Notes: generated by a model from the sequence alone, not told the origin. DNA of 64,000 bases from an uncultured Gammaproteobacteria bacterium (GCA_964594455.1 CAZQLY010000003.1:37360-101359); one strand, 5' to 3'. Numbered from the stretch's first letter, positions 10,384 to 27,122 are shown. Program-made: numbers and translations.

Positions 10384-10464
10384 CAGAAATCCCCTCCTGT
10401 TTCGGTCCTAGGTTATAGCCCAAGGGCGGTTAACTTCTCCCTTGTTTTCTCAAAAGAACCGTGT

Positions 10465-10493
10465 ATATTAGCACAGTTTTGGGGCGTTGTCAA
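10465..10493 (-). promoter_or_regulatory. sigma70-type promoter (TTGACA-N17-TAATAT) on the minus strand
   Basis: The minus strand reads TTGACAacgccccaaaactgtgcTAATAT, which is a perfect -35, a 17-nt spacer and a near-consensus -10. It lies upstream of the histidine-phosphatase gene. Confidence 0.55.
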
Positions 10494-10504
10494 GGGGTAA
10501 ATAA

Positions 10505-10535
10505 AAAGACGAGATTGGCTTATCTCGTCAAAAAT
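10505..10535 (-). terminator. rho-independent terminator for the gene 10540..11052
   Basis: A perfect 8-bp stem GACGAGAT-TGGCTT-ATCTCGTC is followed on the minus strand by TTTTTATTT. Confidence 0.55.
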
Positions 10536-10539
10536 GGGC

Positions 10540-11052
10540 TTATGAATCCGGTTTTTCTTCGCCCCAACTGCGCGACCCGGAGCCACCGATTAGGCCGATA
10601 TACCAGGTATCGCTGTTGAAACCCAACTGGAGATCAGCTTCGGGTAGCGGGATTCGGGGCAGGAAACTGGGTAGGGTGTTGTTTAGCACCCGGAAAAGGC
10701 TGTACTGTATCCCGAAATCCAGTTCCGTACCAGACTCGTTCATGAATCTGAGACCCAGCCCTCCAAATACACTGAGCGACTTCATGACTGGTACGTAGCC
10801 GTAGCCACCGATCAGACCCTCGGTTTCGTCTGCCCAGGATCCAACCGAGACAAAAGGCCCGATCTGAGCCCGTGAAACGTTGAGTAAGTAGTGCAGCTGA
10901 CCCATAAGCAGCATGGCATCACTACCCTCTTCGTTCTCGGTAATTCCGACGTAGGCCCTGGCACCAAAGTTCTCCGGCGCCTTGGACCAAACCGAAGACG
11001 GAACAGCCAGCCAGATTGCTAGCACCACACCAATAACAAGCATCCTTTTCAT
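10540..11052 (-). CDS. secreted beta-rich protein resembling an outer-membrane beta-barrel (OMP_b-brl/OmpW-like) domain
   Basis: A signal peptide (MKRMLVIGVVLAIWLAVPSSVWS) is followed by alternating hydrophobic and Gly/Tyr-rich beta-strand-like segments. The gene is GC-rich relative to its flanks. Confidence 0.35.
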   Translation of the reverse strand: MKRMLVIGVVLAIWLAVPSSVWSKAPENFGARAYVGITENEEGSDAMLLMGQLHYLLNVSRAQIGPFVSVGSWADETEGLIGGYGYVPVMKSLSVFGGLGLRFMNESGTELDFGIQYSLFRVLNNTLPSFLPRIPLPEADLQLGFNSDTWYIGLIGGSGSRSWGEEKPDS

Positions 11053-11144
11053 AGCCTGGAAACCTCCCTGCGGATGTGAATGGTTAAAGAACAGCTGATA
11101 ATCGTATCATATGATATCTTAAAGCGCAAAAGACTATTAGATTG

Positions 11145-11182: not shown

Positions 11183-12850
11183 ATGACCCCACGTAAAAAG
11201 GTTTGGATAACGTTTATTTTTATAGTGATTCTGGCTGGATTAGCCGGGATTGTTGACTATCCCAAAGGACCGGACATAAAGATTAATGATTATTCCAAAG
11301 AATTAAAGGTTCATTTGGGGCTTGATTTGCAGGGTGGGTCCCATTTGGTTTATGAGGCTGATGTCTCAAATATTCCTGAAGCTGACCGTTCTTCATCGTT
11401 GGATGGAGTACGTGATGTAATCGAAAGGCGGGTCAATGCTTTTGGAGTATCGGAACCAGTGGTTCAAACAAACAAAGTAGGAGATAGCTGGCGGGTAATA
11501 GTGGAGTTGGCCGGCGTTTTTGATATAAACGAAGCAATCAAGCAAATTGGTGAGACGCCGCTTTTGGAATTCCGAGAGCAGGCCGAACCTGAGCCTTATA
11601 CCGAAGAGCAATTAGCTGCCATTCGTGCTTTGAACGAAGAAGCCAAGAATAAAGCTCAAGGAATACTTGAGCAAGCATTGCAGCCTGATGCTGATTTTGC
11701 CGCCTTAGCCCAGGAGAATTCAGAAGATACCGGTAGCGCCGAAAACGGCGGTGACTTAGACTTCTTTCCCCGAGGAGTAATGATAACAGAATTTGAAAAT
11801 GTCGTGTTTGATGAGATGCAAGTGGGCGAAGTATATCCGGAATTAGTCCAGACAGATTTTGGATATCATATTATTAAAAAAACAGACGAACGTGAAACAG
11901 GCGAAGGTGATGGCAAGTTGTTGGAAGCCCGGGCGAGCCACATATTAATCCGAACTCAGTCTGAAGAACCTACGGCCTCCACGCAGTTTGTGAATACTGA
12001 TTTGTCAGGCAAGCAGTTAACGCGAGCCGATGTCCAATTTGATCCCAATACTGGAGCTCCAGAAGTAACCCTGAAATTTGATGATGAGGGCAAGAATTTG
12101 TTTGCTGAAATTACCAAGAAAAATGTTGGAAAAATAGTAGCCATTTATCTTGACGGTACGCCTATCAGTCAGCCGGTGGTTCAGGATGAAATAACGTCTG
12201 GTGAAGCAGTTATTTCAGGATCCTTTACCTTGGAAGAGGCTAAAACCCTTGCCCAGCGTTTGAACTCCGGTGCCCTACCAGTACCCATTACCTTAATAAA
12301 CCAGCAGAATGTCGGTGCATCATTGGGTAAAGTTTCCGTAGAGAAGAGTTTATTTGCGGGCTTAATCGGGTTATTCTTTGTGGCTATATTTATGATCGTT
12401 TATTATCGTTTGCCTGGTATTTTGTCGGTTGTTGCCTTGGCAATGTATGCCTTGGTAGTATTAGCAATTTTCAAAATTTGGCCGATTACTTTAACCCTGG
12501 CGGGCGTGGCAGGATTTATCTTGTCAGTGGGAATGGCAGTTGATGCTAACGTCCTTATTTTTGAAAGGATCAAAGAGGAATTAGCCCTGGGCAAGCCTCT
12601 GGGCAGCGCTATTGAAGAAGGGTTTAAACGGGCTTGGCTTTCGATTCGCGATTCCAATGTTTCCAGTTTGATAACTTGCTTTATTCTGATGTGGTTCGGT
12701 AGCAGCTTGATCAAGGGCTTTGCTGTTACTTTAGGCCTCGGTATTATCGTCAGTATGTTTTCAGCAATTACTATAACCCGAACTTTCCTGAGGCTGATAG
12801 CCAGTGAATGGCTAGCTAAGCATTTAGGCTGGATGGGAGTAAAAAGATAA
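11183..12850 (+). CDS. secD: protein translocase subunit SecD with an embedded PpiC-type (parvulin) peptidyl-prolyl isomerase domain
   Basis: The N-terminal TM helix plus LDLQGGSHLVYEAD, and the C-terminal 6-TM region, are SecD-like. Residues ~150-240 (..ALAQENSEDTGSAENGGDLDFFPRGVMITEFENVVFDEMQVGEVYPELVQTDFGYHIIKK..) match the parvulin rotamase signature. Confidence 0.75.
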   Translation: MTPRKKVWITFIFIVILAGLAGIVDYPKGPDIKINDYSKELKVHLGLDLQGGSHLVYEADVSNIPEADRSSSLDGVRDVIERRVNAFGVSEPVVQTNKVGDSWRVIVELAGVFDINEAIKQIGETPLLEFREQAEPEPYTEEQLAAIRALNEEAKNKAQGILEQALQPDADFAALAQENSEDTGSAENGGDLDFFPRGVMITEFENVVFDEMQVGEVYPELVQTDFGYHIIKKTDERETGEGDGKLLEARASHILIRTQSEEPTASTQFVNTDLSGKQLTRADVQFDPNTGAPEVTLKFDDEGKNLFAEITKKNVGKIVAIYLDGTPISQPVVQDEITSGEAVISGSFTLEEAKTLAQRLNSGALPVPITLINQQNVGASLGKVSVEKSLFAGLIGLFFVAIFMIVYYRLPGILSVVALAMYALVVLAIFKIWPITLTLAGVAGFILSVGMAVDANVLIFERIKEELALGKPLGSAIEEGFKRAWLSIRDSNVSSLITCFILMWFGSSLIKGFAVTLGLGIIVSMFSAITITRTFLRLIASEWLAKHLGWMGVKR

Positions 12851-13743
12851 TGTATAGAATAATCCAAAGAAGAAATATCTGGTTTATCCTGTCGGCCCTG
12901 GTCGTCATCCCGAGCATTGTGTTTATTATTATGGGTGGATTGAAGTTAAATATTGATTTTACTGGTGGCACTCTTTGGAAAATTAAATTTACCGAGGAAC
13001 GTCCTGTCATCCAAGATTTAGAAGGGGAATTAGAACAATACGATCTGGGAGATTTGACGGTTCAGACAACAAACGACATGGGTATGGTGATTAGGTTGAA
13101 ACCTATTGATAACGAATTAAGGCAAAATATTCTCAGCGGTCTGGATGAAACTTATTCAGGCGTTGAAGAGGAAAGCTTTGAGTCAATCGGGCCAACTATT
13201 GGCGAAGAGCTTAAACGTAAGGCCCTGGTGGCGATTATCCTAGTTTTAATTTTCATCATCTTATATATCACTTGGGCATTTAGAAAGATATCAAAATCTT
13301 CAGCTATTCCCAGCTGGATGATGGGGCTCTCAGCTATTATTGCTTTAGCCCATGATATAATCATCGTTGTAGGAGTTTTCGCTTTCCTGGGTTTTACCCA
13401 GGATGTTGAAATCGGCGCGCTGTTTGTAACCGCCTTACTGACAATTTTAGGGTTTTCCGTACATGACACAATCGTTGTGTTTGATAGAGTAAGAGAAAAT
13501 ATTATCCAAGGCTCAGATAACGATTTTGAACAAACCATAAATCGTAGTGTCAATCAGACAATTATTCGATCGCTCAATACTTCGCTTACTACGCTGTTCG
13601 TATTGTTGGCGTTGTATCTGTTTGGTGGCGAGTCAATCAAGATGTTTGTTTTGGCGATGATATTTGGTATTATCACAGGAACATATTCATCGATATTTGT
13701 AGCCAGTCCGTTATTAGTCGTTTGGCGTAAATTGAAACAATAG
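12850..13743 (+). CDS. secF: protein translocase subunit SecF
   Basis: The start overlaps the secD stop. A 297-aa protein with the SecF TM pattern (..FTGGTLWKIKF.. then a 6-TM domain). Confidence 0.75.
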   Translation: MYRIIQRRNIWFILSALVVIPSIVFIIMGGLKLNIDFTGGTLWKIKFTEERPVIQDLEGELEQYDLGDLTVQTTNDMGMVIRLKPIDNELRQNILSGLDETYSGVEEESFESIGPTIGEELKRKALVAIILVLIFIILYITWAFRKISKSSAIPSWMMGLSAIIALAHDIIIVVGVFAFLGFTQDVEIGALFVTALLTILGFSVHDTIVVFDRVRENIIQGSDNDFEQTINRSVNQTIIRSLNTSLTTLFVLLALYLFGGESIKMFVLAMIFGIITGTYSSIFVASPLLVVWRKLKQ

Positions 13744-13795: not shown

Positions 13796-13824
13796 TTGAC
13801 ACAAGCAGTTAGATATGCTATACT
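13796..13824 (+). promoter_or_regulatory. sigma70-type promoter (TTGACA-N17-TATACT)
   Basis: TTGACAcaagcagttagatatgcTATACT, upstream of the gene at 13872. Confidence 0.5.
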
Positions 13825-13871: not shown

Positions 13872-15071
13872 ATGTATTCGGTTCGGACGATTTCGGACGT
13901 TTTTATTAATTTAATGGATGAATCGATGGAGGAATCAATCCTCGACAAGGTAATTTCCAGTAAACAAAGCCAAGAACTTCGGGATTTTAATCCCCCCGAG
14001 GTTGTTGGATCTTTGCTAAAACAGCTGACAGATAAAGAGGAAGACATTTTGCGCCGACGCTACGGCCTAGATGGTAAATCTAAGCAAACCTTAGAGGAAA
14101 TAGGTAAGCATTATAATTTGACTCGTGAGCGAATCAGGCAGATAGAGAGCGGAGCTATCAAGCGAATCAAGAAACTCAAGAATTTCACTGAGTTAATTGA
14201 GCCGATTGAATATACGATAAAATCAGTGCTGGATCAAAACGGAGGGGCTTTGTCAAAAGAAAAGTTAATGGAATTACTATTTGAGTTTTCTAATGATACT
14301 CCGGCTAGTCGCCAATCAGTTGCTTTCATTATATCCAAGCTTTTGAATGATCAATTTACTAGCCAGTCGGGCACAGACCAATATCGGTCTGCCTGGATAC
14401 TGCCCTCAACATCGATGGAAAGCATTCAGACTATACTTCAGCACATTATTGATATTATACAAGAAAAGGGTCAGCCGACAACAGAAAAAGAATTAACCCA
14501 GCTCTATAAATCAAAGTATCAATCAGATACTGAGTCGATAGATGAGAGTGCGCTGATGGGCTATATAACTCTTTGCCAGAAGATCAGTCAAAATCCTTTT
14601 GGTGATTATGGTTTGACTGAGTGGGGTACAATAGTGCCGCGGCGAATGAATGACAAGATATATCTAGTGTTGAAAAAAGAAGGTAAGCCCATGCACTTTA
14701 CTAAAATTGCCGAACGGATAAATAAAATTCATTTTGATAACCGCAAAGCCTATCCGCCCACGGTTCACAATGAGCTAATACTTAACGACCGATATGTTTT
14801 AGTCGGCCGAGGAATCTATGCTCTGAAAGAGTGGGGATATAAATCAGGTGTGGTGGCGGATGTGATCATAGAGTTATTGAAAAAAAACGGGCGACCCCTG
14901 AGCCGAGATGAGATTGTAAAGGGCGTTCTGGATCAGAGGATAGTAAAGAAGAACACAATACATTTGGCCTTGACTGATCAAAATATATTTAAGAAGCAAT
15001 CAAACGGTAAATACGCTCTGGTAAATGATGGGCAATCAGATCAGCCCGAGACGGCAAAAACAAACATCTAA
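13872..15071 (+). CDS. sigma-70 region 4 (HTH) domain-containing protein with a ~300-aa C-terminal extension of unknown function
   Basis: Residues ~55-105 (KEEDILRRRYGLDGKSKQTLEEIGKHYNLTRERIRQIESGAIKRIKKL) match sigma70 region 4. No region 2 is present. The start could instead be the ATG at 13914. Confidence 0.5.
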   Translation: MYSVRTISDVFINLMDESMEESILDKVISSKQSQELRDFNPPEVVGSLLKQLTDKEEDILRRRYGLDGKSKQTLEEIGKHYNLTRERIRQIESGAIKRIKKLKNFTELIEPIEYTIKSVLDQNGGALSKEKLMELLFEFSNDTPASRQSVAFIISKLLNDQFTSQSGTDQYRSAWILPSTSMESIQTILQHIIDIIQEKGQPTTEKELTQLYKSKYQSDTESIDESALMGYITLCQKISQNPFGDYGLTEWGTIVPRRMNDKIYLVLKKEGKPMHFTKIAERINKIHFDNRKAYPPTVHNELILNDRYVLVGRGIYALKEWGYKSGVVADVIIELLKKNGRPLSRDEIVKGVLDQRIVKKNTIHLALTDQNIFKKQSNGKYALVNDGQSDQPETAKTNI

Positions 15072-15092: not shown

Positions 15093-16556
15093 ATGCCAAT
15101 TGTTATTGATATAACTGGACTTTCTGTCTCAGGGCCGTTTATGCCATTTATTCAACTTTGGCGTTTTTTTGTAGATGGAGGCTGGATAGTTGTTGTAGCT
15201 TCGTTTTTGCTTATACTTTGGGAGTACCGAATGCTGCGTTTGAAGAAAAGGTATATAGATTCTACTAAATTTATTTTGTTGGCTATTGATGTACCGCGTG
15301 AAGTAGAGCCAAACTTAAAAGCTATTGAGCATATTTATTCTCAGTTTGCGGGAATTTACAGTACCCCCAACTTTATTGAAAAGTATGTTAAAGGACAGGT
15401 ACAGTTATACATTAGCTTAGAGCTTGTTAGTATTGGTGGCTATATTCAATTTATTATACGTACCCCGGAAAAATATCGAGATTTAGTGGAGTCGGCTTTT
15501 TATGCTCAATATCCGGAAGCTGAAATAACAGAGGTCGAAGACTATACTAAAGATATACCGAATAAATTTCCAAATGATAAATACGAACTCCTAGGTTCTG
15601 GAATCTCGTTTAATAAACCAAACCCTTATCCAATAAAAACTTACGTGGCGTTTGAACACAGCCTGTCTCAGCAGTTAGCTGATCCGATGGCTGGACTTTT
15701 GGAGATATTAAGTAAGCTGAAACAGGGTGAGCAAATGTGGATTCAAATGGTTATCAGGCCAAAAGGCAAAGAAGAATGGGTGAACGAAGCCAAACAGATT
15801 GTAAATAAGATTATTGGAGAAAAGAAAGATGCCAAACCGATGTTTGGTGCTGTTGGGGCCATTACTAAAGGCACCTATGAGACAGTCACTGCTTCATTGT
15901 TTGAACCTGCGGCTGAAGAAAAAGCCCAGCCTAACCAGCCAAAAAATTGGATGATGCAGTTAACTCCGGGCGAAAAGGCAACTGTGGAAGCTATCCAGAT
16001 GAAGGTGGCAAAAAAAGCCTACGAAACAAAATTTCGCTATGTTTACGTGGCTGAGAAAGAACTAGTCAACAAAGGATTAGGTATCAATGCTTTTTTTGGG
16101 GCACTCAATCAATTTACAGCCATTGATTTAAACAGCTTCAGGCCTGACAGTCGAACGTTTACTAAAACTAACTATATCTTATTCAAGAAAATGCGCTTTA
16201 GTTTAAAACAGAGACAGTTGATCAAAAACTATAAAGATAGACAACCTGGCAAAGGGATAGTCCTAAACACTGAAGAGTTAGCGAGTGTATTTCATTTCCC
16301 AACCCTGACAGTTAAAGCTCCTCTGGTTAGGAAAATAGATAGTAAGAGAGGAGAACCGCCTACCAGCTTACCTATTGAAGGCGTCGATAATCCAATTAAG
16401 CCCGTAAATAGAGTACCCCAGATTGTTCCCGAGGCTCCGGCTAAACCATCTGTTCCGCCAGCTGGGACCAAACCTGCTTCACGTTCCGCTCAGCCTGAAA
16501 CAAAAGAACCTCCTACTATAAAAAAACAAGCCCCACCCAACTTACCTTTTGAATAA
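15093..16556 (+). CDS. membrane protein (N-terminal TM helices, Pro-rich C-terminal tail), possible partner of the downstream ATPase
   Basis: 487-aa protein with N-terminal hydrophobic helices and a C-terminal ..PEAPAKPSVPPAGTKPASRSAQPETKEPPTIKKQAPP.. tail. Its stop overlaps the next start by 8 nt. Confidence 0.45.
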   Translation: MPIVIDITGLSVSGPFMPFIQLWRFFVDGGWIVVVASFLLILWEYRMLRLKKRYIDSTKFILLAIDVPREVEPNLKAIEHIYSQFAGIYSTPNFIEKYVKGQVQLYISLELVSIGGYIQFIIRTPEKYRDLVESAFYAQYPEAEITEVEDYTKDIPNKFPNDKYELLGSGISFNKPNPYPIKTYVAFEHSLSQQLADPMAGLLEILSKLKQGEQMWIQMVIRPKGKEEWVNEAKQIVNKIIGEKKDAKPMFGAVGAITKGTYETVTASLFEPAAEEKAQPNQPKNWMMQLTPGEKATVEAIQMKVAKKAYETKFRYVYVAEKELVNKGLGINAFFGALNQFTAIDLNSFRPDSRTFTKTNYILFKKMRFSLKQRQLIKNYKDRQPGKGIVLNTEELASVFHFPTLTVKAPLVRKIDSKRGEPPTSLPIEGVDNPIKPVNRVPQIVPEAPAKPSVPPAGTKPASRSAQPETKEPPTIKKQAPPNLPFE

Positions 16557-18201
16557 TATGCCAGACAAAGACAAAAAAGACGACATAACTATATTTGCTG
16601 AAACAAATTTCCGCAATCAGCAAAGACGTTTTGGTATCAAGCTGGATGATCGTCGGAGACACATGTATGTAATTGGTAAAACCGGTATGGGTAAGACAAC
16701 TTTGCTGGAAAATATGATCATTGATGATATCCGCGCCGGACACGGTTTGGCCGTGGTTGATCCTCACGGTGATCTAGTTGAGGAAATAGTTGATTATATT
16801 CCGTCATGGCGTATTAATGACGTAGTGTATTTTAATCCGTCTGACATTGATCACCCGATTGCATTTAACGTGCTAGAAGCGGTAAATCCGATGCACCGCC
16901 ATTTGGTAGCCTCTGGCTTAGTTGGGGTGTTTAAAAAGATATGGGCTGATTCCTGGGGCCCTAGATTGGAATATGTTTTGCGCAATACCGTACTCTCTTT
17001 GCTAGAATATCCAGGTTCTACCCTATTAGGCATTACCCGTCTTTTAGTAGATAATTCTTATAGAAAAAAGGTTGTAGATAAATTAAATGATCCGATTCTA
17101 AAAGCATTTTGGTTGGGTGAATACGCGGCCTATAGCAACCAGTTTAGAACTGAAGCTATTTCACCTATTCAGAATAAAGTAGGGCAGTTTTTGTCCAGTT
17201 CTGTTATTAGAAATATAGTGGGTCAGACAAAGAGCTCAATCGACATGAGAGAGGTCATGGATTCGGGTAAAATATTGTTACTAAATCTATCAAAAGGTCG
17301 AATCGGTGAGGATAATTCAGCGCTCCTAGGGGCCATGATGATCACTAAACTGCAGCTAGCCGCTATGAGTCGGGTGGATATTCCAGAAAATCAGAGAAAA
17401 GACTTCTTTCTTTACGTAGACGAGTTTCAAAATTTTGCGACAGAAAGTTTTGCCAACATTTTATCTGAAGCCAGAAAATATCGCCTTAGCCTGATCGTTG
17501 CTCATCAATATATTGAACAGCTGGATGAGACAGTTCGAGCGGCGGTATTTGGAAACGTTGGCACTATAGCTAGTTTCAGGGTAGGCGCAGCTGACGCTGA
17601 GTTCCTGGAAAAAGAATTTGAGCCAGTCTTTATGCAAAACGATATAGTAAACCTGACAAAGTTTGAAATGTATATGAAGCTTATGATAGATGGGGTGGCT
17701 TCTGAACCGTTTTCCGCTAAAGGTTTGATGCCTCTTACTTCAGGGAAAGCTGAGGGTAACAGAGAGAAAATTATTGACGTATCTCGGGAGAGATATGCTA
17801 CTCCCAGAGAGGTTGTTGAAGACAAAATATCCCGATGGAGCAGCGTAGAGGAGGCAGCCAAAAAAGAAGCTCAGGGCGGCGGCAACAATTTTAATGGTTT
17901 TCAAAGGCGAGATAATAACAATAGAGGAAGATCAAACAATAAAAGAAGAAACGATCGGCGGGGGCCCAAGGTTAATTTACAGTCGGTTCTAACGGATGAA
18001 AAGTCCCAGGTTGTTAAGGAAACGCCTGAAGCACCGGCCGAGATTAGTTTAAAAGAAGCTTTATCACGTGAGCCGGAAGAATTTAGCAGAAAACATCGCA
18101 AACAAAAAAATTTCAATTCACGCAGAGATAATCATAATAATAGATCTGGTAATAACTCATCACGCCACCATATTGATCCGAGCCAAGTGGTTAAGCTATA
18201 A
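16549..18201 (+). CDS. TraD/VirD4-like (type IV coupling protein / DUF87-type) P-loop ATPase with an Arg/Asn-rich basic C-terminal tail
   Basis: Walker A reads GKTGMGKTT, a DPHGD motif follows, Walker B reads FFLYVDEFQNF, and a conserved IVAHQYIEQL follows. No N-terminal TM domain is present. The tail reads GGGNNFNGFQRRDNNNRGRSNNKRRNDRRG... Confidence 0.5.
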   Translation: MNNMPDKDKKDDITIFAETNFRNQQRRFGIKLDDRRRHMYVIGKTGMGKTTLLENMIIDDIRAGHGLAVVDPHGDLVEEIVDYIPSWRINDVVYFNPSDIDHPIAFNVLEAVNPMHRHLVASGLVGVFKKIWADSWGPRLEYVLRNTVLSLLEYPGSTLLGITRLLVDNSYRKKVVDKLNDPILKAFWLGEYAAYSNQFRTEAISPIQNKVGQFLSSSVIRNIVGQTKSSIDMREVMDSGKILLLNLSKGRIGEDNSALLGAMMITKLQLAAMSRVDIPENQRKDFFLYVDEFQNFATESFANILSEARKYRLSLIVAHQYIEQLDETVRAAVFGNVGTIASFRVGAADAEFLEKEFEPVFMQNDIVNLTKFEMYMKLMIDGVASEPFSAKGLMPLTSGKAEGNREKIIDVSRERYATPREVVEDKISRWSSVEEAAKKEAQGGGNNFNGFQRRDNNNRGRSNNKRRNDRRGPKVNLQSVLTDEKSQVVKETPEAPAEISLKEALSREPEEFSRKHRKQKNFNSRRDNHNNRSGNNSSRHHIDPSQVVKL

Positions 18202-18209: not shown

Positions 18210-18749
18210 ATGCTAAAAAAGTTTATCTGGTGCAGCTGTATTTTTATAAGTGTCGTTTTACCTCGAGCCGTGCAATCAGAAAACGCGGTTGAGGTTTATT
18301 ATTTTTTTGATGATGCTTGTTATGCCTGTCAGAGCATGACTGACGCTATCACCTCTCTGGATTCCAAATATGAAACCTTGTCTGTTCAATCAATAAACGC
18401 TGGGGCCGATGAGAGAAGACAAGTTATCTTTAGTGACTTCATGGAGTTGTATCAAGTATATAATTATTCTGTTCCCACTATTATTGTAGGCAATGATGTT
18501 TATTCTGGGTATAGCACCTCAATTGTTAGCGGCATAGAACAGTCAATACTATATTGTCTTAATAATTCTTGTCCATCGCCTCGTTTATTGCTCAAAGACT
18601 ACTATAATTCCCTGGATCAAGCAGAACAATCAGGCAGTCCTAATTCAATTTTGTTTTGGTCGATATTCTTATTTCTCTGGCCGTTACTGGGGATCGCAGG
18701 AATTGTATATGTATTAAAGAAATATAAGCCCAAGAAAAGGATATTATAA
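18210..18749 (+). CDS. thioredoxin-fold-like CxxC protein with a signal peptide and a C-terminal membrane anchor
   Basis: N-terminal signal sequence, the motif VEVYYFFDDACYACQ (CYAC) and a C-terminal TM helix (ILFWSIFLFLWPLLGIAGIVYVL). Confidence 0.35.
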   Translation: MLKKFIWCSCIFISVVLPRAVQSENAVEVYYFFDDACYACQSMTDAITSLDSKYETLSVQSINAGADERRQVIFSDFMELYQVYNYSVPTIIVGNDVYSGYSTSIVSGIEQSILYCLNNSCPSPRLLLKDYYNSLDQAEQSGSPNSILFWSIFLFLWPLLGIAGIVYVLKKYKPKKRIL

Positions 18750-18909
18750 TTATTACAGATTGGGCAGGATGATATGATATGTTAACAGTCGGATAGGCTG
18801 TTTTTGTTTTGTTAAGTTTTTTAGCGCAACAGATGTTTGGATGTGGCTTACAGTATAAAGAAGCTGGCTAACCGAGTCAGATAGAATTCAGCAAATTATT
18901 TATACTTGT

Positions 18910-18938
18910 TTGACAAATTAGTAACAATCTATTATTAT
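18910..18938 (+). promoter_or_regulatory. sigma70-type promoter (TTGACA-N17-TATTAT) followed by an AAAGGAGA ribosome-binding site
   Basis: TTGACAaattagtaacaatctatTATTAT, with an AAGGAGA Shine-Dalgarno 7 nt before the ATG at 18989. Confidence 0.5.
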
Positions 18939-18988
18939 AAAGGACATTGTGTATTAGATAATTAATCCTTAAAAAGGAGACATCATAA

Positions 18989-19777
18989 ATGTCAGAAAAC
19001 GAACGCGAGACAGAAACGTCTCAGGGGGAAAAGGGATTTTTTGCCAGTCTTTCACCAAAATCAAGCTTTATGGTCGGATTGGTAGGTGGAATAATGTTTT
19101 TATGTACAGTTGGTTTTTTTGTACTGCTAACTGTCTATATCCAAGGGGGAATGGATAATAAAGATAGCGACTCAAAGGTGGCTGGTGTTGACACTACAGC
19201 CAATGCCAATGCAAATACTAATGTTAATAGCGCCGATGCCTATGTTCCGGCCTATGTCGATTTTGATATAACAGACGATGATTATATCCGAGGTAATCCG
19301 GATGCTGAAATAACATTATTGGAATATTCAGATATTGAATGCCCTTACTGCTCTCGTTTCCATGAATCAGCCATGCAGTTACTAGAAGCATACCCAGATG
19401 ATGTCCGCTGGGTCTATCGTCATTTTCCGCTTGATTCACTTCACCCAGAGGCCAGACCAGCTGGGCTGGCTGCTGAATGCGCTGCCGAGCAAAGCGGCAA
19501 TGACGGATTTTGGACATATCTGGATGCCTTGTTTGAAAATCAAGATGATTTAGGCGATGAGCTATTCGAGCAGTTGGCTAGCGAACAAGGCCTAGATGTT
19601 GCAACTTTTACCAGTTGTTATGAAAGCGAGAAATATGCCAGTGCTGTAGAATCGGATTATCAGACCGGGCTACAAGAAGGTATCACCGGAACACCCGGTA
19701 GCTATCTCAATGGCACTGAATTAGGTGGGGCAGTTCCTTACGCCCAACTTGAAGCAGCTGTTGAATCAATACTCTAA
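18989..19777 (+). CDS. DsbA-like thiol:disulfide oxidoreductase (CPYC active site), membrane-anchored
   Basis: N-terminal TM helix. The motif YSDIECPYCSRFHE is followed by ..VRWVYRHFPLDSLHPEA.., typical of the DsbA/thioredoxin fold. Confidence 0.65.
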   Translation: MSENERETETSQGEKGFFASLSPKSSFMVGLVGGIMFLCTVGFFVLLTVYIQGGMDNKDSDSKVAGVDTTANANANTNVNSADAYVPAYVDFDITDDDYIRGNPDAEITLLEYSDIECPYCSRFHESAMQLLEAYPDDVRWVYRHFPLDSLHPEARPAGLAAECAAEQSGNDGFWTYLDALFENQDDLGDELFEQLASEQGLDVATFTSCYESEKYASAVESDYQTGLQEGITGTPGSYLNGTELGGAVPYAQLEAAVESIL

Positions 19778-19841
19778 AGTTAGATAGATAATAAGTTATT
19801 TAAATTACTGGTTTGAGTTGCTTTTGGTTTTGTAATAGCTT

Positions 19842-20639
19842 ATGAGGTCAAAAAATAATCCAGACAGCAAAAGAGAAAAATCATCCTGGTATTTCCATTG
19901 GTGGGGGGTGGCCAGTTTGATTTTGGCTTCGGTAGTGGCCTTATCATTATTATTGTATGGAGCGCAGGTAATATTATTTGGCGGAAAGACTACTTCTGAA
20001 GTCGATGCCTTAGTTAAATCAGGAGCAACCGCAGAAGATATTTTTTTGAGACAACCAAAAGCAGTATCGGCACCAGATAATCCCTGGATGGGCACAGAAG
20101 ATTATACGGTTCAGATTGTAGAATTCGTGGATTATCAGAGTCAGTATAGTCAACAGGTTACTGCAACGGTGCGTGATATAATCTCAGAATTTAGCAACGT
20201 AGTGAAATATACTCATAGGGACTTTCCTGATCAAATTAATCAGGACGGCATCAAATTAGCCGAGCTGGCTCGTTGTGCTGAGGAACAGAATCGTTTCTGG
20301 GTTACTCGAGACCGTTTGTTATTATTGCAAGGTAAAAAAAGCGCTGACGATCTGATAGATGAAATAACCAGCAGCGTTGGACTTGATCGTGATGTCCTGC
20401 AAGAATGTTTGGACTCTGATAGATATATAGATGATATTGAGGAAGATTATTTATCCGGCGTAGCCGCTGGTGTGAAAGGCACTCCCACTTTTTTCTTTAA
20501 TGGCTACAAAGCCGAAGGCCTGTTGGAGGCTGAAGACTTCTACAAGATCCTAGATGTATTAATTCCTGGTTATAGAGAATATTATGAGGAACCTGACTCC
20601 TTTGATTCTATACCAGATTTAATTCCAGCCGACGAATAA
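19842..20639 (+). CDS. DsbA-like paralog lacking the CxxC active site (probably a redox-inactive thioredoxin-fold protein)
   Basis: Alignable to the upstream gene (..EFVDYQSQYSQQV...KYTHRDFP.. versus ..EYSDIECPYCSRFH...WVYRHFP..), with CPYC replaced by YQSQ. Confidence 0.5.
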   Translation: MRSKNNPDSKREKSSWYFHWWGVASLILASVVALSLLLYGAQVILFGGKTTSEVDALVKSGATAEDIFLRQPKAVSAPDNPWMGTEDYTVQIVEFVDYQSQYSQQVTATVRDIISEFSNVVKYTHRDFPDQINQDGIKLAELARCAEEQNRFWVTRDRLLLLQGKKSADDLIDEITSSVGLDRDVLQECLDSDRYIDDIEEDYLSGVAAGVKGTPTFFFNGYKAEGLLEAEDFYKILDVLIPGYREYYEEPDSFDSIPDLIPADE

Positions 20640-21008: not shown

Positions 21009-21785
21009 ATGATTCCTTATTTCGAATTAACTACAATAGAAGTAGGAAGTTGGTCCCTTAATATTTGGGGCTTGCTAGTTTCATCAGGCTTTTTGACAGC
21101 TATAATCATTTCATATCGTGAGGCCAGGCATAACGAGCTCAAGTCGGAGCTTATATTGGATTTAGCAATAGTAATTATTATTTCAGCAATAATAGGTTCT
21201 AGGCTTTTTTATGTTTTTAATGAGTGGGATCAATTCAAAGATCAGCCAATCAATATTTTAAAGATTTGGGAAGGCGGCCTAGCTATCTATGGTGGTATAG
21301 TTGCTTCTGTGTTGGCCGGCTGGGTTTATTTACGCAGGCGTCGGGTGTCTTTTTGGAAATACGCTGACGTGGTGGCATACGCGATGCCTTTAGGATTAGC
21401 TATCGGTCGCATCGGCTGCTTCATGATTCACGACCATCTGGGTAAAACAACCAATTTGCCCTGGGGATTTCAGACCGCTATTGGTAAAGTGAGGCACGAG
21501 ACAGCTATGTATGAAATTTTAGCCATGGTTATTGTTTTTATTATTTTTTCTTTTATTAGAAAAAAAGAATATTTTCGTAATCAGCCAGGAAGGCTAGTGA
21601 TAATGTTTTTTTTAATCTACGGACTATTCCGTTTCTTTTCTGATATGCTACGAGCTACCGACCTACCCGGTTCAGACCCGGTTCTTTGGCTTGGATTCAG
21701 ACCAAGTCAAATATTTTCGTTATTTATAATAGTTGTCTCGATCAGCCTAATCTATTTTTGGAAAAGAAAAAAAGATATAGATTAA
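21009..21785 (+). CDS. lgt: prolipoprotein diacylglyceryl transferase
   Basis: 7-TM protein with the Lgt signature region ..YAMPLGLAIGRIGCFMIHDHLG.. Confidence 0.7.
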   Translation: MIPYFELTTIEVGSWSLNIWGLLVSSGFLTAIIISYREARHNELKSELILDLAIVIIISAIIGSRLFYVFNEWDQFKDQPINILKIWEGGLAIYGGIVASVLAGWVYLRRRRVSFWKYADVVAYAMPLGLAIGRIGCFMIHDHLGKTTNLPWGFQTAIGKVRHETAMYEILAMVIVFIIFSFIRKKEYFRNQPGRLVIMFFLIYGLFRFFSDMLRATDLPGSDPVLWLGFRPSQIFSLFIIVVSISLIYFWKRKKDID

Positions 21786-21839: not shown

Positions 21840-22595
21840 TTATTTCTGATTTGGTTTTTTCTTGGCCAGGCCTTCCAGTGCTCGTAATACTTCCAGTGGC
21901 ACAGCGAAGACTACAGTGTTTGATTGATCAGAGGACAAATCATTTATTGATTGTAGAGTGCGGAGATGAAGTGCACCATCTGATTCACCCAACATCTTGG
22001 CAGCTAGGCTCATATTCTTAGCGGCTATTACCTCACCCTCTGCTTTAATAATGACGGCTCGTTTTTCTCTTTCGGCTTCTGCTTGTTTGGCAATAGTGCG
22101 TTTCATTTCCTCAGGCAGTTCTATGTGTTTTAATTCTACCGCTACGACTTTTATTCCCCAGGGATCAGTAGCAATGTCAACGAGCTTACGAATTTTTTTG
22201 GAAACTTCATCGCGCTGGGTTAGAAGTAGGTCAAGCTCGGTTTCACCCACTACATCACGCATAGTAGTCTGGGCTAATTGAGATACAGCATAAACATAAT
22301 TTTCAACTTCAATGATTGCGGTATTAGCTTCTACCACTTTAAAATAAAGCACCGCATTAACCTTGACAGATACGTTGTCTCGGGTAATTGCATCTTGATC
22401 TGGAACATCAATAGCTATAACCCGCATATCCACCTTAGTCATTGTTTGAAATACGGGTATAACTAATCGCCAACCCGGTTTGGCAGTGGAGGTGTATCTC
22501 CCCATAGTAAATTTAACCCCTCGCTGGTATTGGTTTATCTGCCTGATGGAAATTAGTAAAATAACTACAACGATAATAATTGGTGTCCAATACAT
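21840..22595 (-). CDS. SPFH/band-7 (stomatin/HflK/C-like) domain protein
   Basis: N-terminal TM helix followed by an SPFH core (..YQRGVKFTMGRY...VLYFKVVEANTAIIEVENYVYAVSQLAQTTMRDVVGE...) and an EA-rich coiled coil. Confidence 0.65.
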   Translation of the reverse strand: MYWTPIIIVVVILLISIRQINQYQRGVKFTMGRYTSTAKPGWRLVIPVFQTMTKVDMRVIAIDVPDQDAITRDNVSVKVNAVLYFKVVEANTAIIEVENYVYAVSQLAQTTMRDVVGETELDLLLTQRDEVSKKIRKLVDIATDPWGIKVVAVELKHIELPEEMKRTIAKQAEAEREKRAVIIKAEGEVIAAKNMSLAAKMLGESDGALHLRTLQSINDLSSDQSNTVVFAVPLEVLRALEGLAKKKPNQK

Positions 22596-22693: not shown

Positions 22694-22830
22694 CTCAGGT
22701 CACTCTGGCCAGTTTCTGGTTCAGTGACAGATCTTTGACATTCTTAGATAGATTCGAAACCCAATAGGGGAATATTTCCCCTGAGGCTAGTACAGTTATC
22801 AGGAGGCGAATTGCCTTCAGGAGGTGAAAA

Positions 22831-25044
22831 ATGAAGTTCATGGACAGCGTTTCGTCGATCGCCAATATGCGCGTGTCGGGTTTTGTGATTTTGACGGTGG
22901 TTTTTGGTTTGGCGCTTTCGCTTGCGTTCAAGACCATGAACTGGTTGCTGGTGCTTGTTGTTATGGCAGCGGTGACCTATGTCTTCTATCGGTACCGAGA
23001 GAGATTGCTCTTCCAGGTGACCGATCGGATGTTCAAGTACTACTACCTGGTGGGATTTTTGATCATGACAACCCTGTACATGCTACTTGTGTTCAGGATG
23101 ATCAGAGATCCAATTTCCAGCTGGCTGGCAGTGATCATCTACTTTCTTTCGTGGACGATCCTGCTGGTCTATGCTGGAAAAGCTCAGATTGGTGCTACCT
23201 TCATCAAAGAGCCTGGTGCGATGTTGATTCAACGAGGGGGCATGTTCCTCCGCATCGCCTGGGTGAAGAAGGGGCATCGGATGTTGACTAACCAAGCAGC
23301 TCAACGCTTAAACGCACTGGCGTTCCTTTTCAATCCCACGGTTGAGGATCATAAGAAACGGATCTTCGTGAAGTGGCTGTTGTTTCAACTCGAGGATGCC
23401 CTGGACGAAAAAGCCCACCTTATTCGGGGATGGGATGTGGTGACTACCTTTGGAGGTGATCCATTCGTTTCTGAGTCAGCGCGTGAGCGGACGGCGGAAG
23501 GTTGTATTACTCTGTCAACACCTGAAGATGTGTACAATATGATTCGAAGATCACCTCAAGAAGGTGAGAAAACGATTTCTCACCAACCACCGTACTCACG
23601 TCCTCGGTTCAGCCATATGGCCAAAAGGCCTAGCAGTGAAATAGATGAAATTCTGAGGGCTCTATCGGTCGTTTCGGGCAGTAGCCGGGCAGAGTTTCAA
23701 GTTCACAGCCAGCTGCTGACAAGGGACGAGAAGAGGGAGGGTCGTAAAATACCCAACCAGAATAAGTATGTGTTCAATCCTGAGTTCACAGTTGGCTACC
23801 GTGACCGCTTTGCCCAATATGACATCATGACTGAAACTGAAATCGCCCATGAGTCTGGATTGACGCCCGGAATCATCAAATGGTGCATGGCGGATGTGGC
23901 AGAACAGCAGAAGCCGCGCAAGGGCGTCTTCGGCGGTTTGCGCGTGATCGGATTCCCTTGGGATTCAGTTATGACACATCAGCTGGTAGTTGAAACCTGG
24001 TCTGAGGTAACGGATGTAACCGAGGGGGGCGCCGCTTACAAGGTGGAGAAGGTCCCTCGGGAATTCCAGAGGATTGGCCTGGGCCGTGAACAGATGAAGC
24101 TTTTCGTCAAACGAGCAGAAACTGCTGACGGCTATGCTGTTGATTTCTACGTAGTCATCTTCTTGCATTTGCGCAACGTGTATAAGGCGATGATTGATGT
24201 GGACGACTGGCATCAGTGGCTAGCCAATGTCATTGTTGCCAAGATCCGAGAGCTGACTCGTCGTCTGCCTATCCACGCCGCGATTGATGCCAAGGAGCAC
24301 GTTTCCGAGTGCATCAGACGCGGTGTTCACGGTGAAGAGTACACTCTGGTCCCGGAGCTCATCAGCCCGGTACCTGACGGATCCAGTGAGGACATCCAGA
24401 AAGAAGGGCGTCCGAAGTACCGCATACACGTCGTGCCCATCCGCGATCTCAGGAAACTGGAGCGTATGCTATATGCTGCGGTTGGAGATAACGATGGAGC
24501 TGAGAAGAAGGCCAATACCAAGGACCAAGACAGTATCAAGGATGTTGCTGTCGACGAGACTCTCCTGGAGAGCATTCTGTTCAAGGCCGGAATCGTGGTT
24601 GATGGGATGGGCGTCAAGGACGTTATTCCCTCAGACACCGAGGCTAAGCAGTTCATCGAGGCCTTGCCCAGCGCGATTCAGGAAGCGCAGATTCGCATCA
24701 GGCAGGGAATCGGTGAAGCTGGCAGAATCGAACGGGAAATCGCTGCGCTGGCTAGCAAGGGCGAGAATGTCGCTCAGATCTTCCAGCTGATTGAGACAAC
24801 CAAGAGTGTTCCATCTGGGAGCACGGTTGTTCTTGGTGGCGGAGGCGGATCGATCGACCAAGCCCTGTTGGCCCAGCTGTTGCGAGATCGGAGCAAGCCA
24901 ACCGGCAAAACCGGAGGATCGGGTGAAACCGATGCTCCGGAATCAGTAAGCGCAGATGCAAAAGGCTCCGGCGATATAGCCGGATCAGACCGTGAGAGCG
25001 GGAAACGTCCTGAACGTTCCCGTTCTACACGGAAACGATCTTAG
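22831..25044 (+). CDS. large membrane-anchored hypothetical protein (N-terminal TM helices, ~600-aa soluble region, Gly-rich and basic disordered C-terminus); possibly flotillin/SPFH-like
   Basis: 737-aa ORF in a GC-rich island with strong AGGAGG ribosome-binding sites. The C-terminal ..IRIRQGIGEAGRIEREIAALASKGENVAQIFQLIETTKSVPSGSTVVLGGGGGS.. resembles the end of bacterial flotillins; this is a weak impression only. Confidence 0.4.
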   Translation: MKFMDSVSSIANMRVSGFVILTVVFGLALSLAFKTMNWLLVLVVMAAVTYVFYRYRERLLFQVTDRMFKYYYLVGFLIMTTLYMLLVFRMIRDPISSWLAVIIYFLSWTILLVYAGKAQIGATFIKEPGAMLIQRGGMFLRIAWVKKGHRMLTNQAAQRLNALAFLFNPTVEDHKKRIFVKWLLFQLEDALDEKAHLIRGWDVVTTFGGDPFVSESARERTAEGCITLSTPEDVYNMIRRSPQEGEKTISHQPPYSRPRFSHMAKRPSSEIDEILRALSVVSGSSRAEFQVHSQLLTRDEKREGRKIPNQNKYVFNPEFTVGYRDRFAQYDIMTETEIAHESGLTPGIIKWCMADVAEQQKPRKGVFGGLRVIGFPWDSVMTHQLVVETWSEVTDVTEGGAAYKVEKVPREFQRIGLGREQMKLFVKRAETADGYAVDFYVVIFLHLRNVYKAMIDVDDWHQWLANVIVAKIRELTRRLPIHAAIDAKEHVSECIRRGVHGEEYTLVPELISPVPDGSSEDIQKEGRPKYRIHVVPIRDLRKLERMLYAAVGDNDGAEKKANTKDQDSIKDVAVDETLLESILFKAGIVVDGMGVKDVIPSDTEAKQFIEALPSAIQEAQIRIRQGIGEAGRIEREIAALASKGENVAQIFQLIETTKSVPSGSTVVLGGGGGSIDQALLAQLLRDRSKPTGKTGGSGETDAPESVSADAKGSGDIAGSDRESGKRPERSRSTRKRS

Positions 25045-27119: not shown

Positions 27120-27122
27120 TTA

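Follow-up and report, generated by a model that had tools for sequence, protein, structure and literature searches.

Two open reading frames were found at positions 15093-16556 and 16558-18201 on the plus strand of the window, the 64-kb stretch of DNA analysed here. The first encodes a DUF8128 protein and the second an ATPase that resembles the coupling proteins (T4CPs) of the VirD4/TrwB family. The ATG at 16558 is the start used in the NCBI and Logan gene calls, and an alternative TTG at 16549 gives a protein of 550 aa; ATPase residues are numbered here from the TTG. The initial annotation described the two genes as overlapping. An overlap of 8 nt exists only with the TTG start, whereas the ATG lies 1 nt past the TAA stop codon of the upstream gene (16554-16556). 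The two genes are tightly coupled under either start codon. The features of the locus are collected in Table 1.

Table 1. Features of the locus, with positions counted from the first nucleotide of the window.
Feature	Position	Strand	Basis or remark
SecD	11183-12850	+	Pfam precomputed in relatives; upstream synteny partner
SecF	12850-13743	+	Pfam precomputed in relatives; upstream synteny partner
Promoter-like site TTGACA-17-TATACT, TG extension, 11/12	13796..13824	+	consensus scan
Sigma-70 region 4 + HARE-HTH protein, 399 aa	13872..15071	+	Pfam
DUF8128 (PF26449) protein, 487 aa	15093..16556	+	precomputed PF26449, AF2 model, fusion elsewhere
Long N-terminal helix with single TM segment, res 17-57	15141..15263	+	hydropathy, AF2 secondary structure
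Alpha/beta domain, VirB4 N-terminal-domain-like fold, res 60-400	15270..16292	+	
Internal EPPTSLP motif, res 421-427	16353..16373	+	alignment of homologues
Variable Pro-rich disordered spacer, res 428-480	16374..16532	+	alignment occupancy 0.36-0.42; pLDDT <60
C-terminal motif PPNLPFE (consensus PPxNLP[F/I]x)	16533..16553	+	homologue alignment
TM-less VirD4/TrwB-family (T4CP-like) ATPase, 547 aa from ATG	16558..18201	+	profiles, AF2
Walker A GKTGMGKT, res 43-50	16675..16698	+	G43-K49 invariant
All-helical insertion, counterpart of T4CP all-alpha domain, res 114-238	16888..17262	+	AF2 secondary structure
Walker B FFLYVDEF, res 286-293	17404..17427	+	D291, E292 invariant
Basic disordered C-terminal tail, net +12, res 426-550	17824..18198	+	pLDDT <50 for most
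Tail island ISLKEAL, predicted short helix, res 499-505	18043..18063	+	108/120 homologues
Extreme C-terminal motif PSQVVKL (consensus L.PGQV[VI][KRH][FL])	18178..18198	+	97/120 homologues
Thioredoxin-like protein with CxxC, 179 aa	18210..18749	+	weak glutaredoxin/thioredoxin matches; last gene of predicted unit
Terminator-like hairpin then T-run, after four-gene unit	18784..18802	+	consensus scan only

The promoter-like site is putative, a consensus match and one of only two of 11/12 in 10 kb. It precedes a predicted four-gene unit made up of the genes for the sigma-r4/HARE-HTH protein, DUF8128, the ATPase and the thioredoxin-like protein. The 399-aa product of the first of these genes was matched in Pfam by Sigma70_r4 (52 bits, residues 48-101) and HARE-HTH (35 bits), and its PDB matches are limited to sigma region 4. 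Among the neighbours it was also the only protein with a PADLOC match, to MzaA. The sigma-r4/HARE-HTH gene ends 21 nt before the DUF8128 start and is probably co-transcribed with the pair. Among 61 loci from relatives, 36 have this gene directly 5' of DUF8128. SecF is encoded at most 2.2 kb upstream in 32 of the 61 loci, and SecD and SecF are taken as genomic context for the pair and, at most, as a candidate functional link. The block SecD-SecF-(sigma-r4/HARE-HTH)-DUF8128-ATPase is conserved, including on a closed 1.08-Mb chromosome. The genes 3' of the pair vary among relatives, and the thioredoxin-like gene is a lineage-specific neighbour. The GC content of the pair is that of its surroundings, and no integrase, transposase or repeat boundaries were found among the scanned ORFs of the window. 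The initial annotation had reported that relaxase, VirB4 and pilus genes are absent nearby. This holds for the whole window, where almost every ORF of at least 110 aa was scanned against Pfam and no T4SS or relaxase gene was detected. No relaxase or VirB4 (mating-pair-formation) genes were present within 10 kb in the relatives' loci inspected.

The DUF8128 assignment was taken from the precomputed PF26449 annotation of an identical or near-identical protein, the local Pfam copy being without this model. The AF2 model of the protein has a pLDDT of 82.8. Where the initial annotation described TM helices, one strongly hydrophobic segment (about residues 25-47) was found and not several. The core of the TM segment, residues 29-45 (nt 15177-15227), is followed by the positive patch RMLRLKKRY, and by the positive-inside rule the soluble domain is predicted to be cytoplasmic. 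The upstream protein is membrane-bound as proposed, but it is more than TM helices and a tail and carries a module of ~340 aa (DUF8128) that resembles the N-terminal domain of VirB4. In a Foldseek search the top 10 matches were all to TrwK (VirB4), the only strong structural match of DUF8128, with low TM-scores (~0.33) and a large rmsd. The match was assigned to the N-terminal part of VirB4 because no other P-loop ATPase appears among the Foldseek matches. The resemblance is one of structure, and no sequence signal accompanies it in hhalign (0.5% for TrwK, 0.8% for TrsD) or in the Pfam VirB4 families.

The Pro-rich tail noted earlier for this protein is real and ends in the conserved PPxNLP[F/I] motif. 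Nearly every member of a list of 60 homologues has this motif, and a regular expression finds it in 110 of 120; within the window it occurs in the DUF8128 protein only. The internal EPPTSLP motif occurs in 113 of 120 homologues, with P422, P423, L426 and P427 invariant.

The ATPase (AF2 pLDDT 81.1) has a Walker A/B nucleotide-binding domain (NBD) of the FtsK-HerA clade and, as the initial annotation stated, no TM segment; no hydrophobic window appears in its hydropathy profile. All of the motifs named in that annotation are present, including DPHGD (residues 71-75) and IVAHQYIEQL (residues 316-325) in addition to Walker A and Walker B, and their columns are invariant or nearly so in 60 homologues. 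The proposed membership of the VirD4/TrwB coupling-protein family was confirmed by Pfam scores of 47.2 bits for TrwB_AAD_bind (cut-off 20.5; residues 34-328), 24.5 for TraG-D_C (cut-off 22) and 21.3 for T4SS-DNA_transf (cut-off 20.1). The other two profiles suggested for the search remained below their cut-offs, with 21.8 bits for DUF87 (cut-off 23.2) and 13.1 bits for FtsK_SpoIIIE (cut-off 24). The all-alpha domain of T4CPs has its counterpart in the helical insertion within the NBD, which is spanned by the hhalign alignment to TrwB 118-393. This alignment reaches 94.3% (E 1e-7, 265 columns), compared with 2% for TrwK/VirB4, and by sequence the closest solved relatives are TrwB and DotL. No match to the VirB4-type Pfam families AAA_10 and CagE_TrbE_VirB was obtained, and the FtsK gamma domain is absent. 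Matches to the NCBIfam T4CP equivalogs (TraD, CD1115 VirD4-like, TrbC, CedD) were all partial, the best at 47.9 bits with a cut-off of 366.

The last ~120 aa of the ATPase were described earlier as a basic low-complexity tail reminiscent of the RGG type. The basic character was borne out (K+R 28, D+E 16 and N 17 in the last 125 aa), whereas the RGG-type composition is not conserved, with three or more RG/RGG in only 15 of 120 homologues. Tails among these 120 homologues are 41-249 aa long, with a median charge of +8 and a positive net charge in 117. In the alignments, the conserved traits are the positive net charge and two short linear motifs, and the RGG-like composition is lineage-specific. 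An AF2 helix at residues 501-506 (pLDDT about 80) coincides with the ISLKEAL island, which resembles the terminal VS[IL][DE]D[LAF]L[VF] of plasmid-borne fused homologues.

The initial view that the membrane half is encoded as a separate upstream gene was borne out by fused homologues. In tblastn searches both proteins used as queries mapped to the same "DUF87 domain-containing protein", a single polypeptide of ~850 aa that is encoded on some 10 plasmids of Bacillaceae. Examples from Bacillaceae/Paenibacillus plasmids are WP_248290882.1 (Shouchella clausii NZ_CP012476.1) and WP_003349917.1 (B. methanolicus pBM69). In the Shouchella protein of 883 aa, hhalign placed DUF8128 at residues 41-306 (97.6%, E 4e-12) and the ATPase at residues 324-717 (99.9%, E 5e-35). 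Precomputed architectures that combine PF26449 with PF10412/PF01935/PF12696 are found on proteins of 750-1000 aa from Firmicutes and Gracilibacteria/Altimarinota, and one PHROG family, phrog_5156, covers both proteins. These three independent lines, from plasmid proteins, Pfam architectures and PHROG, identify the two genes as likely halves of one split coupling protein. The fused proteins match the pair in module content and order, and their EPPx[DN]LP junction motif is the counterpart of EPPTSLP. The plasmid versions differ in having no TM helix and strongly acidic tails, and in lying in Tcp-like conjugation loci beside Replic_Relax; on three plasmids the context comprises primase, the fusion, Replic_Relax, TcpC, TcpE and AAA_10 (a VirB4-type ATPase). 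The fused plasmid relatives do pass the DUF87 cut-off, with 34 bits. On Gracilibacteria chromosomes the fused gene has a housekeeping context, with SecG three genes upstream in two loci, and the protein keeps the TM helix, has a short tail and lacks the two tail motifs.

DUF8128 is present in at least 576 species-level Patescibacteria genomes. More than 8000 ATPase matches at 60-77% identity were found, with 1527 DUF8128 matches on the same contigs. Clustering at 50% identity gave 3434 clusters. The ATPase gene lies immediately 3' of DUF8128 in 58 of 71 loci, and no ATPase gene follows in the other 13. Viral contigs gave one partial match among 2.9 million. From these comparisons the pair is judged to be fixed in the chromosome under strong purifying selection and not to be a decaying remnant. 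VirD4-like T4CP homologues have been reported in 2,918 of 3,035 Patescibacteria genomes, compared with 2,417 genomes for VirB4, and only 148 of 5,713 T4CP copies are near virB4 (PMC12102498).

Among known systems, the VirD4/TrwB T4CPs (R388 TrwB, Legionella DotL, pGO1 TrsK) share with the ATPase the P-loop NBD with an inserted all-alpha domain and a C-terminal extension, for which partner binding is probable. They differ in that their N-terminal TM domain is part of the same polypeptide, while here a separate protein, DUF8128, supplies the TM helix and carries a VirB4-N-terminal-domain-like module that canonical T4CPs do not have. The genes in the window are also chromosomal and vertically conserved and do not adjoin relaxase or T4SS genes, a linkage seen only for the plasmid-borne fused relatives. 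The order of membrane element, N-terminal domain and ATPase parallels VirB4 (TrwK) and VirB3-VirB4 fusions, VirB3 being the membrane anchor of VirB4 (PMC12102498); in contrast to TrwK, the attached ATPase is VirD4-like. With respect to the TcpA (pCW3), ConQ-type and FtsK-like coupling proteins of Gram-positive MPF_FA systems, the ATPase is nearer to VirD4/TrwB than to FtsK_SpoIIIE. The match to EccE/EccC of type VII secretion is weak and partial, and other T7SS components are absent. The C-terminal tail of F-plasmid TraD binds TraM. Like TraD, the ATPase has a disordered C-terminal extension that ends in a short conserved peptide, a possible dock for a DNA-binding partner; unlike that of TraD, the extension is basic and not acidic and has two motifs, and no TraM homologue is present. 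The sigma-r4/HARE-HTH protein may be speculatively named as a candidate partner of the tail.

Several other explanations of the pair were weighed. The initial annotation raised the possibility of a conjugative-element remnant. The pair would then be the decayed, non-functional residue of a T4SS or integrated conjugative element (ICE), which would fit the missing relaxase, VirB4 and pilus genes and the plasmid location of the nearest non-CPR relatives. However, the ATPase core is highly conserved over thousands of homologues, its catalytic motifs are invariant, the chromosomal synteny extends across hundreds of species, the ORFs are intact and have promoter-like and terminator-like signals, and neither the GC content nor the scanned ORFs mark an inserted element. 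This reading is largely refuted by conservation, synteny and intact ORFs, and deserves practically no credence. Nor is the pair likely to be a split VirB4-type ATPase, with DUF8128 as the N-terminal and the ATPase as the C-terminal domain, although the structural match of DUF8128 and the gene order would suit it and a separate VirB4-N-terminal-like protein, TrsD, is known in MPF_FATA systems (PMC12102498). The profile matches of the ATPase are to T4CP families, its hhalign scores favour TrwB over TrwK, and DUF8128 has no similarity to TrsD. The Bacillaceae plasmids moreover carry their own AAA_10 ATPase, and the fused protein adjoins a relaxase-like gene, the usual position of a T4CP. A defence or repair ATPase of the HerA/DptH/MADS type, unrelated to secretion and acting with a nuclease or modification partner, is suggested by a PADLOC mad8 match (62.7 bits, E 1e-17), weak HerA matches and the DUF87 score slightly under its cut-off. 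The mad8 profile derives from HHpred/PDB homologues and is probably generic for the ATPase clade. The window has no nuclease, Sir2 or NurA partner and none of the MADS/Dnd partner genes (methyltransferase, kinase, nuclease, DndFGH); DUF8128 has no PADLOC match, the context is housekeeping and not a defence island, T4CP-specific Pfam families score over their cut-offs, and fused homologues lie in conjugation loci. A defence or repair ATPase of this type is very hard to credit.

An accessory motor of Sec-dependent export or membrane-protein biogenesis would be in keeping with SecD-SecF directly 5' in many loci and with SecG near the fused gene in the two Gracilibacteria loci. Gene order alone is weak evidence, SecDF adjacency is missing in roughly half of the loci, and the near-consensus promoter-like site that separates secF from the sigma-r4/HARE-HTH gene suggests that the two belong to different transcription units. 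To our knowledge no T4CP works with Sec, and such a role is judged to be very unlikely. A T4SS-independent housekeeping DNA translocase derived from a split T4CP, acting in FtsK-like clearance at division or in uptake of environmental or host DNA, is a more tangible possibility, albeit a doubtful one. It would agree with a pair that is chromosomal, near-universal and vertically inherited, with a location far from T4SS genes, in the present locus as well as in Gracilibacteria, and with the positive charge of the tail. T4CPs are also descendants of dsDNA pumps (PMC12857230), their homologues occur in more genomes than VirB4, and the T4CP has been reported to be non-essential in an organism that requires its T4SS (PMC12102498). 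Against it, DNA binding by the ATPase is putative, the FtsK features are wanting, and the excess of T4CP over VirB4 may stem from MAG incompleteness.

The two genes are best explained, with good though not full confidence, as two halves of one coupling-protein-type ATPase machine (VirD4/TrwB family, FtsK-HerA superfamily). DUF8128 would provide membrane attachment through its one TM helix and its cytoplasmic module of VirB4-N-terminal-domain fold, and the ATPase would be the catalytic part. The fused plasmid protein fills the position of the coupling protein in a Tcp/ICEBs1-like conjugation locus. In the present Patescibacteria lineage the gene has probably been split at the inter-domain junction and fixed in the chromosome. 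DUF8128 could form a membrane-proximal collar on which a ring of the ATPase would dock. ATPases of the coupling-protein family generally form ring-shaped hexamers, and a hexamer in physical complex with DUF8128 would be expected here. With energy from ATP hydrolysis, a macromolecular substrate would be recruited or translocated. DUF8128 may be tethered to the ATPase through its PPxNLP motifs, and a partner or substrate may dock on the basic tail of the ATPase with its two conserved short motifs.

As the role of this split coupling protein, service as substrate receptor for a chromosomal T4SS encoded elsewhere in the lineage is plausible but somewhat short of probable. T4SS-independent DNA handling is a tentative possibility, and the remainder is left unassigned. 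The T4SS-coupled role is weakened by the wider distribution of T4CP homologues than of VirB4. It is weakened as well by the report that the T4CP homologue of S. epibionticum, which may not be an orthologue of the ATPase described here, is non-essential while the T4SS genes are essential (PMC12102498). The pair may also act in episymbiosis or be a "minimal translocation device", as put forward in the initial annotation. A coupling-protein motor made as one polypeptide on Bacillus-group plasmids probably occurs here in split form, highly conserved among the housekeeping genes of many ultra-small Patescibacteria and far from secretion-system genes.

The membrane-protein gene (DUF8128) and the ATPase gene of the window are classified together as a split, domesticated T4CP (VirD4/TrwB-type coupling protein) with a VirB4-like N-terminal subunit. 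A split coupling protein had been proposed in the initial annotation, and both halves do map onto single fused chains. By three independent comparisons (plasmid tblastn, precomputed Pfam architectures and a PHROG family), the two genes are shown to correspond to one putative machine. With tblastn, about 10 Bacillaceae plasmids were found to encode single "DUF87 domain-containing proteins" that contain both queries. In the 883-aa protein of Shouchella clausii, hhalign places DUF8128 at residues 41-306 (97.6%, E 4e-12) and the ATPase at residues 324-717 (99.9%, E 5e-35). A search seeded with this protein returned 750-1000-aa proteins with precomputed PF26449 and T4CP/DUF87 domains from Bacillaceae, Paenibacillus and Gracilibacteria/Altimarinota, the latter on contigs up to 1.2 Mb. 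The family phrog_5156 covers both halves: its profile positions 49-293 match DUF8128, and positions 407-817 match the ATPase. In the fused CPR-type proteins the N-terminal TM helix is retained, and the domain junction contains EPPx[DN]LP. The Shouchella junction reads DPNL-TIPLGEHNY; its counterpart in the window is the DUF8128 end PPNLPFE and the ATPase start DITIFAETNF.

The gene order in three Bacillaceae plasmids is PriCT primase, fused protein, Replic_Relax, TcpC, TcpE and an AAA_10 VirB4-type ATPase. By this order the conjugation locus is Tcp/ICEBs1-like, and its sole coupling-protein candidate is the fused protein, which is encoded beside a relaxase-like gene. A further copy was observed on the Pontibacillus sp. 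megaplasmid NZ_CP062975.1 (locus L088, 7472-11455), where TM helix, DUF8128 and Walker A lie in one frame and the architecture is therefore fused. The remaining ATPase sequence is spread over three frames with ~1 kb of extra sequence; this copy is thus disrupted, as a pseudogene or by insertions. It is annotated as separate hypothetical proteins, with a Tn916-Orf7-like sigma/HTH gene adjoining (L088:11950-12783) and an Mbov_0395-type pilin-like conjugal gene near.

The ATPase already carries the annotation [quoted passage not shown]. It scores above the gathering threshold for three T4CP families in Pfam, TrwB_AAD_bind (47.2 bits), TraG-D_C and T4SS-DNA_transf, and falls just below that of DUF87 and clearly below that of FtsK_SpoIIIE, in agreement with the coupling-protein assignment made initially. 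The matches to named T4CPs in NCBIfam are partial and sub-threshold. By sequence, TrwB and DotL are its only solved relatives, and a profile of 60 sequences aligned to TrwB 118-393 with a probability of 94% versus 2% for TrwK/VirB4 (hhalign). The AF2 model (pLDDT 81) contains a RecA-like core, an all-helical insert at residues 114-238 and a disordered tail; the predicted insert resembles that of T4CPs. A fold search with the ATPase did not tell T4CP, VirB4-CTD, HerA and DptH apart. PADLOC matches to mad8/HerA raised a defence-system ATPase, a reading that was rejected because the mad8 profile derives from HHpred/PDB homologues (MADS preprint) and the other system genes are absent. The closest ATPase outside the CPR (Patescibacteria), at 40% identity, is encoded on a Sulfitobacter plasmid by a lone gene flanked by transposases.

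Homologues of the upstream protein belong to Pfam PF26449 (DUF8128). Its AF2 model (pLDDT 82.8, pTM 0.76) consists of a long helix at residues 17-57 with the TM segment inside, a compact alpha/beta domain at residues 60-400 and a disordered Pro-rich C-terminus. Since no other P-loop ATPase appears among the structural matches, we infer that the VirB4 match is to the VirB4-specific N-terminal region. The predicted DUF8128-VirB4 link is a structural one: no sequence similarity to R388 TrwK or pGO1 TrsD was detected with hhalign, no PDB sequence matched the DUF8128 profile at E ≤ 10, and a lenient Pfam scan of 67 DUF8128 members gave no VirB4-family match. In split DUF8128 proteins the EPPx[DN]LP-type motif occurs twice, once just behind the domain (113/120) and once at the very C-terminus (110/120), with a variable Pro-rich spacer between the two.

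The last 125 aa of the window ATPase are basic (net +12) and rich in N, R and S. Among 120 homologues the tail is 41-249 aa long (median 150) and rich in P, R, S, E and Q, and its charge is positive in 117 (median +8). The RGG-type tail suggested initially does not hold for the family; three or more RG/RGG occur in 15 of the 120, and N/G richness is confined to close relatives. An island, ISLxEAL, is present in 108/120 homologues and is predicted as a short helix at residues 501-506 with locally high pLDDT (AF2); a terminal motif, L.PGQV[VI][KRH][FL], is present in 97/120. Neither motif was found in other proteins of the window as a possible shared targeting signal. Unlike the positive tails of the split ATPases, those of the plasmid-borne fused proteins are strongly acidic (-30 to -49) and end in VS[IL][DE]D[LAF]L[VF], a sequence similar to the ISLxEAL island. 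C-terminal extensions of T4CPs dock relaxosome or adaptor proteins (F TraD-TraM, DotL-IcmSW). By analogy, the two tail motifs are candidate partner-binding sites, and the basic stretch may bind nucleic acid. Five ATPase homologues (P0094, P0095, P0104, P0353 and P0358) carry PF23477, named "CxxC-x17-CxxC domain" in one source, in place of or inside the disordered tail, an arrangement suggesting that the tail is modular and binds partners or nucleic acid.

All ATPase motifs quoted in the initial annotation are present, each in invariant or nearly invariant alignment columns. The tight coupling of the two genes also stands; the 8-nt overlap itself is optional, because the public gene calls start the ATPase at ATG 16558, 1 nt past the upstream TAA. 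Where several TM helices had been read in the upstream protein, one strongly hydrophobic segment was found (about residues 25-47), followed by RMLRLKKRY. The hydropathy plot of the ATPase contains no such segment. The pair is part of a predicted four-gene unit (sigma-r4/HARE-HTH, DUF8128, ATPase and a thioredoxin-like gene) with the signals listed in the table. The first gene encodes a protein with sigma-70 region 4 (RpoD-like, without regions 2 and 3) and HARE-HTH (RNAP-delta-like), and possibly a further winged helix. It is probably co-transcribed with the pair, and its product is a possible DNA-binding partner or regulator. Directly 3' of the ATPase and ahead of Lgt, three successive genes encode thiol-disulfide proteins: a CxxC thioredoxin-like membrane protein of 179 aa and a pair of DsbA/Thioredoxin_4 proteins that have TM segments at the N-terminus.

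Coordinates of the pair, its bracketing signals and other features of the window
Feature	Position	Strand	Size or basis
DUF8128 ORF	15093-16556	+	487 aa
ATPase ORF (alternative starts)	16549/16558-18201	+	550/547 aa
Near-consensus promoter, 5' bracket of four-gene unit	13796-13824		consensus match
Terminator-like hairpin, 3' bracket of four-gene unit	18784-18802		
Sigma-r4/HARE-HTH gene	13872-15071	+	399 aa
Thiol-disulfide genes, followed by Lgt	18210-20639, 21009-21785	+	
PF00391 array	149-9596	+	
PF00391 paralogues	149-634, 638-2005, 2074-3606, 3603-4682, 4679-6109, 8124-9596	+	Pfam
Canonical SPFH gene	21840-22595		251 aa
SPFH/Band-7 gene	22831-25044		737 aa
Tandem membrane-protein genes	26604-27659	-	~175 aa each
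ParA/ParB	29574-31216	+	
DprA	37401-38264	-	
Surface-protein cluster	53795-63477	+	
Tandem WxL-domain genes	53795-54373, 54385-54963		192 aa each

Several other features were recorded in the window. The array near its start contains six consecutive or near-consecutive paralogues, each ending in a PEP-utilising-enzyme mobile domain (PF00391, 82-91 bits) after an N-terminal region of 80-430 aa that matched no Pfam family; the expansion is unusual for a small genome. Local GC rises at ~9600-11100 and ~22800-26000, reaching 0.49 (10-12 kb) and 0.54 (24-26 kb), where the background is about 0.40. The second rise covers the 737-aa SPFH/Band-7 protein, which has a long low-complexity charged C-terminus and whose gene adjoins the canonical SPFH gene on the opposite strand. 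The Gram-positive-type surface-protein cluster includes the two WxL-domain paralogues, a 578-aa WxL-interacting/LysM protein that weakly matches T2SS-G (pseudopilin-like), and a protein of 1496 aa without any Pfam match. The two tandem membrane proteins are paralogous, share MFLT(A/T)HAA... N-termini and have no Pfam match. ParA/ParB lie 11 kb downstream of the pair. DprA, the DNA-processing protein of natural transformation, is encoded 19 kb downstream and adjoins TopA. There is no sign of an origin or terminus switch, as the cumulative GC skew increases monotonically from one end of the window to the other.

More than 8000 ATPase homologues were found in Patescibacteria, with 60-77% identity to the query among the matches listed. 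The 1527 DUF8128 homologues often share contigs with them. DUF8128 is encoded in at least 576 species-level genomes, and the family comprises about 3,400 clusters at 50% identity. Where enough sequence is available, the ATPase is immediately 3' of DUF8128 in 58 of 71 loci and is not adjacent in the other 13. The sigma-70-region-4/HARE-HTH gene is directly 5' of DUF8128 in 36/61 loci, SecF lies within 2.2 kb upstream in 32/61, and the block SecD-SecF-sigma-r4/HARE-HTH-DUF8128-ATPase also occurs in a closed 1.08-Mb chromosome. The terminal NLP motif is present in 9/13 loci without an adjacent ATPase versus 53/67 others. In seven loci (L023, L034, L037, L039, L040, L042 and L048) DUF8128, with its terminal NLPF motif kept, is followed, in place of the ATPase, by a ~400-aa protein whose sequence starts with "GIDARFYGP..GKGLGRYTQE" and then by a ~850-aa protein. 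The fused gene of Gracilibacteria is flanked by RuvX/L9/SecG and PGK/SSB, with no T4SS genes within 10 kb.

The pair had alternatively been read as the remnant of a conjugative element. As noted initially, relaxase, VirB4 and pilus genes are missing nearby: no VirB4, relaxase, VirB6/8 or conjugative pilin was found in the 64 kb by Pfam over nearly all ORFs of at least 110 aa. The same search identified ordinary chromosomal genes (SecDF, ParAB, RelA/SpoT, TopA, DprA, Mfd, Der, Pth and Lgt), and the GC content around the pair is uniform. The pair is essentially absent from viral contigs, with one partial match. A decaying remnant is rejected on the basis of the species range, ATPase identity, conserved synteny, chromosomal context and unit signals.

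A large part of bacterial diversity belongs to the host-dependent Patescibacteria. In the mechanism proposed for the split coupling protein, DUF8128 would sit in the membrane, its VirB4-NTD-like domain facing the cytoplasm; the ATPase would assemble on it, presumably into a hexameric ring like that of TrwB, and ATP hydrolysis would power substrate recruitment or translocation. VirD4-like T4CP homologues occur in 2,918 of 3,035 Patescibacteria genomes (about 96%) and VirB4 in 2,417 (PMC12102498). T4CP genes are rarely encoded near virB4 (only 148/5,713), and in S. epibionticum the T4CP homologue is reported to be non-essential and the T4SS genes essential; the first T4SS with a reported essential role in growth is that of Patescibacteria (PMC12102498). 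These observations leave room for a T4SS-independent role, within the limits set by MAG incompleteness and uncertain orthology. It is rather unlikely that the pair works as a membrane-bound macromolecule motor independent of the T4SS, which Patescibacteria took from a Gram-positive conjugative element and made into core housekeeping machinery. Such a motor could serve to translocate DNA at division or to import nucleic acid from the host or the environment.

Orphan VirD4-like genes are already known in Patescibacteria, without an assigned role (PMC12102498). In the searchable literature no paper contains the term DUF8128, and none was found on this obligate-looking partner or its VirB4-N-terminal-like fold, on the fusion/split relation to Gram-positive plasmid coupling proteins, or on the conserved chromosomal block and short motifs; a T4SS review contains nothing on T4CPs with VirB4-like N-termini (PMC12857230). 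The orphan ATPase thus gains an obligate-looking partner, an origin in a single-chain Gram-positive plasmid coupling protein and an architecture (TM helix, VirB4-N-terminal-like domain, T4CP ATPase and a tail with two short motifs), and DUF8128 obtains its first structural and functional context. Hypotheses that become testable concern complex formation, partners that depend on the motifs, and whether the pair works with or without the T4SS. The pair would represent a T4CP lineage with an N-terminal module common to VirB4. On the rather unlikely motor reading above, the lineage would also be an architectural intermediate between VirB4 and VirD4 and would inform the divergence of the two T4SS ATPases.
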